Positions 4,744 to 4,981 of a stretch of 4,981 nucleotides of DNA are shown in pieces (within the stretch, counting starts at the first letter, position 1; the number at the start of each line of letters is the position of its first letter). This DNA comes from a virus (lineage: Duplodnaviria; Heunggongvirae; Uroviricota; Caudoviricetes). The notes beneath the pieces were generated by a model. The model saw nothing but the letters and a program-made list of their open reading frames with translations. It had not been told where the DNA came from and ran no database searches. The translations under genes were made by a program, and so were the position numbers. The DNA lies in IMG/VR virus record IMGVR_UViG_2648501787_000009; one strand, given 5' to 3'.

Positions 4744-4941
4744 ATGACAAATACAGCAAAAATACTCAACTTCGGCAGAGGTAACTTTGCCGGACAGGAG
4801 CGTAATGTGGCAGATCTCGATGATGGTTACGCCAGACTATCAAATATGCTGCTTGAGGCTTATTCAGGCGCAGATCTGACCAAGTGTCAACGACGGATGA
4901 AAAGTGATCCACTTATATCTCCACCAACGGCCCAATATTGA
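4744..4941 (+). pseudogene. O: O replication-initiator gene, truncated or disrupted: lambda-like for 47 codons, unrelated thereafter, stop after codon 65
   Basis: ATG at 4744 with GGAG Shine-Dalgarno. Translation MTNTAKILNFGRGNFAGQERNVADLDDGYARLSNMLLEAYSGADLTK matches remembered lambda O. From about 4885 the DNA no longer resembles lambda O (CQRRMKSDPLISPPTAQY*), with TGA at 4939..4941. No iteron-containing origin region follows within the window. Confidence 0.6.
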
Positions 4942-4981
4942 TCCACCGTTTTACTCAGGATTAGCTTCAGCTATAACCCCG

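Follow-up and report, generated by a model that had tools for sequence, protein, structure and literature searches.

Interruption of the replication gene O of a phage 434-type prophage by the insertion sequence IS100kyp at the end of an Escherichia coli contig

The stretch of DNA analysed here (4981 nt in all, and referred to below as the window) carries the early region of a phage 434-type prophage, and its last 97 nt belong to the insertion sequence IS100kyp. In our reading, to which we assign a probability of about 0.9, IS100kyp transposed into the O gene of a 434 prophage between codons 47 and 48, the target CCAAG was duplicated in the process, and the contig breaks inside the IS.

Results

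The open reading frame at 4744..4941 on the plus strand encodes 65 aa and closes with the stop codon at 4939-4941. Its first 47 codons (4744..4884, plus strand) are the 5' fragment of O, identical to O of phage 434 (OL657226; 141/141 nt) and matching lambda O (J02459) at 140/141 nt, the sole mismatch being a silent A/G at O nt 123. Both similarities cease in the alignments after the AAG of codon 47, at the boundary 4884/4885, and the lambda and 434 matches obtained in whole-window searches likewise stop at query position 4884. A preliminary description, made from the sequence alone, had read the first 47 codons as lambda O, the loss of lambda similarity as falling at about 4885 and the frame as stopping at 4939..4941, 65 codons in; the alignments and the ORF list bear out each of these statements. 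What closes the O' frame is IS-encoded nonsense, 18 codons and a TGA (CQRRMKSDPLISPPTAQY and then the stop; 4885..4941, plus strand, from the ORF list and the IS-end alignment). Against the Pfam profile Phage_rep_O (PF04492), the 65-aa product covers positions 2–31 of 95 (29.7 bits), full-length 434-type O covering positions 2–95 (123 bits). With 30 of the 95 positions left in the stub the N-terminal iteron-binding domain is incomplete, and on this comparison the product is best regarded as a gene fragment and not as a functional member of the Phage_rep_O family. The preliminary description had also remarked on the lack of iterons, and there are indeed none within the 4981-nt window, but their absence is uninformative: the ori iterons of 434 and of lambda both open at O nt 349, and the window stops before that point, at the equivalent of O nt 238, so that an undamaged O would show none either.

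The foreign DNA that follows, 4885..4981, is the terminus of IS100kyp, an element of the IS21 family: it is identical at 97/97 positions to the terminal 97 bp on the istB side of IS100kyp copies, and is oriented on the minus strand. Matches to this terminus number at least 390 records at 99% identity or above and 3552 at 95–99%, the matched copies being annotated as 'IS21-like element IS100kyp family' or as IS100kyp istB. Of 5426 complete E. coli genomes, 2979, more than half, carry a match to it, chromosomal or plasmid-borne and at up to 25 places per genome. The preliminary description had matched these bases to no IS end; a search with 4885 onward returns the IS100kyp terminus in hundreds of E. 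coli records. Independent copies sit in unrelated flanks, and their divergence sets in precisely at TGTCAACG, the identity beginning at TGTCAACGACGG; because copies in different contexts become identical exactly there, position 4885 is the true IS terminus.

Complete IS100kyp copies are 1954 bp long and end in ...CCGTTCGTGACA. The first 28 nt of the IS in the window (4885..4912) form an imperfect terminal inverted repeat (TGTCAACGACGGATGAAAAGTGATCCAC) which starts with TG and is complementary at 21 of 28 positions to the other end of the 1954-bp copies. Elements of the IS21 family carry istA and istB between terminal inverted repeats ending in CA (PMC10122671). The present element has the 5'-TG...CA-3' form, since the end in the window, the one end lying inside it, opens TGTCAACG and complete copies finish ...GTGACA. 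On the minus strand, 4951..4981 translates as the last nine codons of istB with the stop at 4951-4953, and the peptide, GVIAEANPE followed by the stop, is the C-terminus of full-length IstB (L004). Because the IstB C-terminus sits on the minus strand, the IS enters from its istB side and is antisense to O, both istA and istB being oriented on the minus strand. istA encodes a DDE transposase and istB an AAA+ helper ATPase; both genes are found in complete reference copies, and the window carries just the last nine istB codons. The 35-nt IS end is also identical to approximately 45 IS100 copies of Yersinia pestis NCTC5923. Exact IS100 ends were seen, in addition, in assemblies that bear the labels of Eubacterium saphenum, Rikenellaceae and Sutterella MAGs and of Amphibacillus jilinensis (L015, L022, L029, L036). 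In a comparison of 15 nt, the flank of the Amphibacillus copy (L022) equals the flank found in two contigs of Y. pestis (L050, L065); the IS100 ends in these assemblies appear to stem from contamination or faulty binning, and not from genuine hosts.

The window is identical to the entire 4981-bp draft contig JHQX01000069.1 (GCA_001265155.1), and because it spans a whole contig its end is an assembly break, not a biological end. Short-read assemblers cannot cross a multicopy IS, and a contig break inside one is to be expected. The ORF for the 65-aa O stub is recorded on three contigs. The same junction forms the end of a 209-kb contig of GCA_049894145.1 (L007), which stops approximately 92 nt into the IS and differs from the window at one of 4976 positions; the O/IS junction thus recurs in two or more assemblies that were produced independently and in different years. 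It was found in none of the 5426 complete E. coli genomes, so that both of its ends are seen together in no closed assembly, and exact searches with 35 nt of the left junction gave no match in species-representative genomes or in JGI metagenome contigs. At its left end (position 1, inside bet) the window also stops at a contig end, through which the GCA_049894145.1 contig continues; because the contig ends inside bet where the sister assembly reads through, a second lambdoid prophage sharing bet/exo sequence in the source genome is suggested.

The five bases directly before the IS terminus, CCAAG (4880..4884; native O, ACC AAG), form the left copy of the target-site duplication. For a simple insertion the right junction would read ...CACCGTTCGTGACA-CCAAG-CGACAGTTTAAAGTG, and we assembled this predicted junction by placing the CCAAG duplication between the left end of the IS and O codon 48 onward, the O protein used being the version that three out of four close relatives have in common. 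Read in the frame of O, the predicted junction contains a stop and then an ORF startable at a GTG inside the IS, which encodes MDHYCTVRD from the IS, TK from the duplication and O residues 48–299 (MDHYCTVRD-TK-RQFKVLL...), a fusion that is in frame only given the 5-bp duplication. Exactly this 263-aa junction protein is found in the public protein collection (NCBI) on three contigs, the longest of 2314 bp, a contig count equal to that of the 65-aa stub. Of the junction ORF versions tried, the collection contains one, which starts at the GTG and carries the common 434-type O; versions with a TTG start or the internal GTG start ('MLLAIL...'), and those built with O from strain 19KM2326N or from lambda, are missing from it. 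The right junction has been matched exactly at the level of protein and not of DNA, so that of the two CCAAG copies the left is read directly and the right is deduced at the protein level. Because a reciprocal ORF with the matching duplication and O residues 48–299 exists, the protein match indicates a simple insertion, in which CCAAG would have been duplicated and the 3' part of O left intact.

Duplications of this length are usual for IS100: perfect 5-bp duplications flank 23 of 40 IS100 copies surveyed elsewhere, and two complete IS100kyp copies have 5-bp direct repeats, GCTTC in one and CCAAG in the other. CCAAG is also the target duplication of an IS100kyp copy in the sbmC-yeeA island (L004 and L006 flanks). 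The idea that this sharing is something unusual was rejected, as the 23 perfect duplications show a weak target consensus, (C/A)(C/T)(T/A)A(C/G), which CCAAG fits; coincidence together with a mild target bias is the likely explanation.

The alternative that survives best is that, after the insertion, recombination between this IS and another IS100 copy rearranged the right part of the prophage, by deletion, inversion or relocation, and in doing so separated the 3' part of O, ori and P from the left junction. The two junctions do lie on separate contigs, the strains that carry IS100 have as many as 25 copies, and 17 of the 40 surveyed copies are not bordered by matching 5-bp repeats, a pattern compatible with frequent IS–IS recombination. 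However, the reciprocal junction, with its matching duplication and complete O 3' part, is present on as many contigs as the left junction, and a deletion of O would leave no such 263-aa ORF; we consider a later rearrangement improbable, and infer that the two junctions of the simple insertion are physically contiguous. An assembly artefact, i.e. a chimeric contig end joining O to an IS fragment, might be suspected because the junction is just 97 nt short of the end of the contig, a region prone to assembly-graph errors, but the near-identical recurrence in an independent assembly made years apart, the exact coincidence of the break with the IS terminus and the occurrence of the reciprocal ORF make its probability negligible. 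Lambdoid O genes are mosaic, and an intact but divergent O allele, or a sequencing error giving a false stop, had been named in the preliminary description as the outcome that would overturn it; the 97 bases downstream of the break, however, have no similarity to any O gene and specify the IstB C-terminus on the opposite strand, and there is virtually no chance of this explanation being correct, refuted as it is by the IS100kyp identity, the definition of the terminus and the O alignment. A prophage/host boundary, or a deletion endpoint in the host chromosome, would account for the abrupt loss of similarity and nothing more, and is refuted, to the point of deserving almost no weight, by the identity of the sequence past the break as a mobile-element terminus that occurs in many unrelated contexts, including plasmids and Y. 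pestis, and by the position of the attL end, beside ybhC and 10 kb upstream in the GCA_049894145.1 contig. Of the three origins first proposed for the break, namely a deletion endpoint, an insertion or a prophage/host boundary, it is the insertion that holds, the break being an IS end; the reciprocal junction ORF speaks against a deletion and attL near ybhC against a host boundary.

Upstream of the break (1–4884) the window is 99.9% identical to Escherichia phage 434 (OL657226.1) and contains the 434 immunity region (cI, cro and operators) with the flanking early genes. The 434 annotation maps as bet' (partial), gam, cIII, ea10, a gene for a 289-aa protein, N, nutL, pL/oL, hex, cI, pRM/pR, cro, nutR, cII, oop and O, and gives a name to every feature of the region. 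cII, which lies upstream of O in the pR operon (4418..4711, plus strand), is intact, matching Pfam Phage_CII and identical to the 434 annotation. At least 80% of the region is present in 99 complete E. coli genomes. In the longer contig (L007), int and xis open the prophage beside ybhC, in the att-lambda neighbourhood, and the attL/int end lies approximately 10 kb to the left of the region corresponding to the window.

The preliminary description had further pictured a domesticated, defence-carrying prophage, a view that the pL genes do not sustain, native as they are to 434 at 99.9% identity and without a PADLOC match. The 289-aa protein (1393-2262, minus strand) bears the label 'Nun C-terminal peptide-containing protein' in 434, and the 134-aa Hex 'repressor protection protein' (2946-3350, minus strand), encoded between N/pL and cI, is likewise annotated in 434; the genes for both belong to native 434 and were not picked up as cargo. 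No PADLOC defence model was matched by the 289-aa, 134-aa and 122-aa pL-operon proteins; the first two of these also have no Pfam match, and Ea10 matched DUF2528 only.

Relative to 434, a 98-bp deletion is present between window positions 624 and 625 (434 record 30907-31004), lying between two 11-bp direct repeats (ATCCATTTTTT). It takes almost all of kil, the gene for a toxic FtsZ inhibitor, and swaps the last eight codons of cIII, which is 47 aa long as against 54; despite this loss at the cIII 3' end, the cIII thermoregulator (Rfam Lambda_thermo, RF01804) is intact at 718-776 on the minus strand (88.5 bits). The deletion is common to the window and the GCA_049894145.1 contig, and in each of the six relatives examined, by annotation or by sequence, kil is present and cIII is 54 aa long. 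A 1-nt insertion at 523, where an A has been added, and an A-to-G change at 528, again relative to 434, lie upstream of the short gam ORF and within the long-form gam reading frame.

Discussion

The most probable course of events is that a 1954-bp IS100kyp element, with its istA and istB genes, transposed into O of a 434 prophage resident at att-lambda beside ybhC, that it entered between O codons 47 and 48 in an orientation antisense to O, and that the target CCAAG was duplicated. Translation from the O start would then run 18 codons into the IS before meeting a stop, and would yield a 65-aa stub in which the C-terminal domain that interacts with P is missing altogether and little is left of the iteron-binding N-terminal domain. 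The remainder of O, including ori, and then P would lie across the IS on a separate contig, assembly having presumably halted in the multicopy IS, so that the contig, and hence the window, ends 97 nt into the element.

In lambda, the N-terminal domain of O binds the ori iterons and the C-terminal domain recruits P–DnaB, and it is established from lambda genetics that O-defective phages cannot replicate. The function of O has presumably been lost here, and, because just 30 of the 95 Phage_rep_O positions remain in the stub, the prophage is probably replication-defective on its own, as the preliminary description had reasoned from the broken O, with 434 cI immunity kept. Another lambdoid prophage might provide O in trans.

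Loss of kil alongside a broken O could reflect selection, and both the O::IS100 insertion and the kil deletion are common to all contigs of the lineage. It is tempting to speculate that the two were successive selected steps which locked and detoxified the 434 prophage, as opposed to independent decay, although we think this rather unlikely; if true, the host would be spared the danger of lethal induction and would still have 434 immunity, Hex and the Nun-C-terminal-peptide protein.

Prophage genes are routinely interrupted by IS elements, and the two partners here, IS100 and phage 434, are both known from textbooks. The event described here is ordinary prophage decay, a known IS in a known prophage gene and an event of a kind already known, and its biological importance is very small. 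Its value lies mainly in annotation: what appears as a truncated O without iterons is an IS insertion combined with a contig break inside a repeat, and the contig end makes an ordinary interruption of O look more dramatic than it is. We advise that the sequence be annotated as a 434-like prophage with O::IS100 and a kil deletion, probably unable to self-replicate.

The visible part of the element, which amounts to 5% of its length and one end, resembles IS100/IS100kyp in its TG terminus, IstB C-terminus, 5-bp target duplication and 97-nt identity, and within that part no difference is seen. The prophage shares with phage 434 the gene order bet, gam, cIII, ea10, Nun-C-terminal-peptide protein, N, hex, cI, cro, cII, O, and differs from it in O::IS100, the 98-bp deletion, the 1-nt insertion at 523 and four SNPs. 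Like lambda, it is integrated beside ybhC. By analogy with lambda Oam mutants, loss of the initiator should block replication and spare immunity, but the lesion here is an insertion and not a nonsense mutation, and may be polar on ori activation and P.

Prophages of the same type, at the same locus and with an IS in the early region occur in other E. coli. That of FDAARGOS_1059 has an independent IS100 a few bases upstream of the cII ATG (L010 6013-7965; equivalent to window 4411-4415), with the duplication CTTAC, co-directional with pR and with a frameshifted istB, and those of O103:H2, O121 and other STEC have, between gam and kil, an element of the IS3 family that contains a programmed frameshift (L069, approximately 1780-3090). 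Unlike the present prophage, FDAARGOS_1059 and the O103:H2 and related STEC prophages have their insertions at other sites and O intact. Relatives with an intact O are also decaying, because the related prophage of UTAK-6 has a frameshifted exo (L009 4744-5425) and a truncated Q followed by lpxR (15372-15443).
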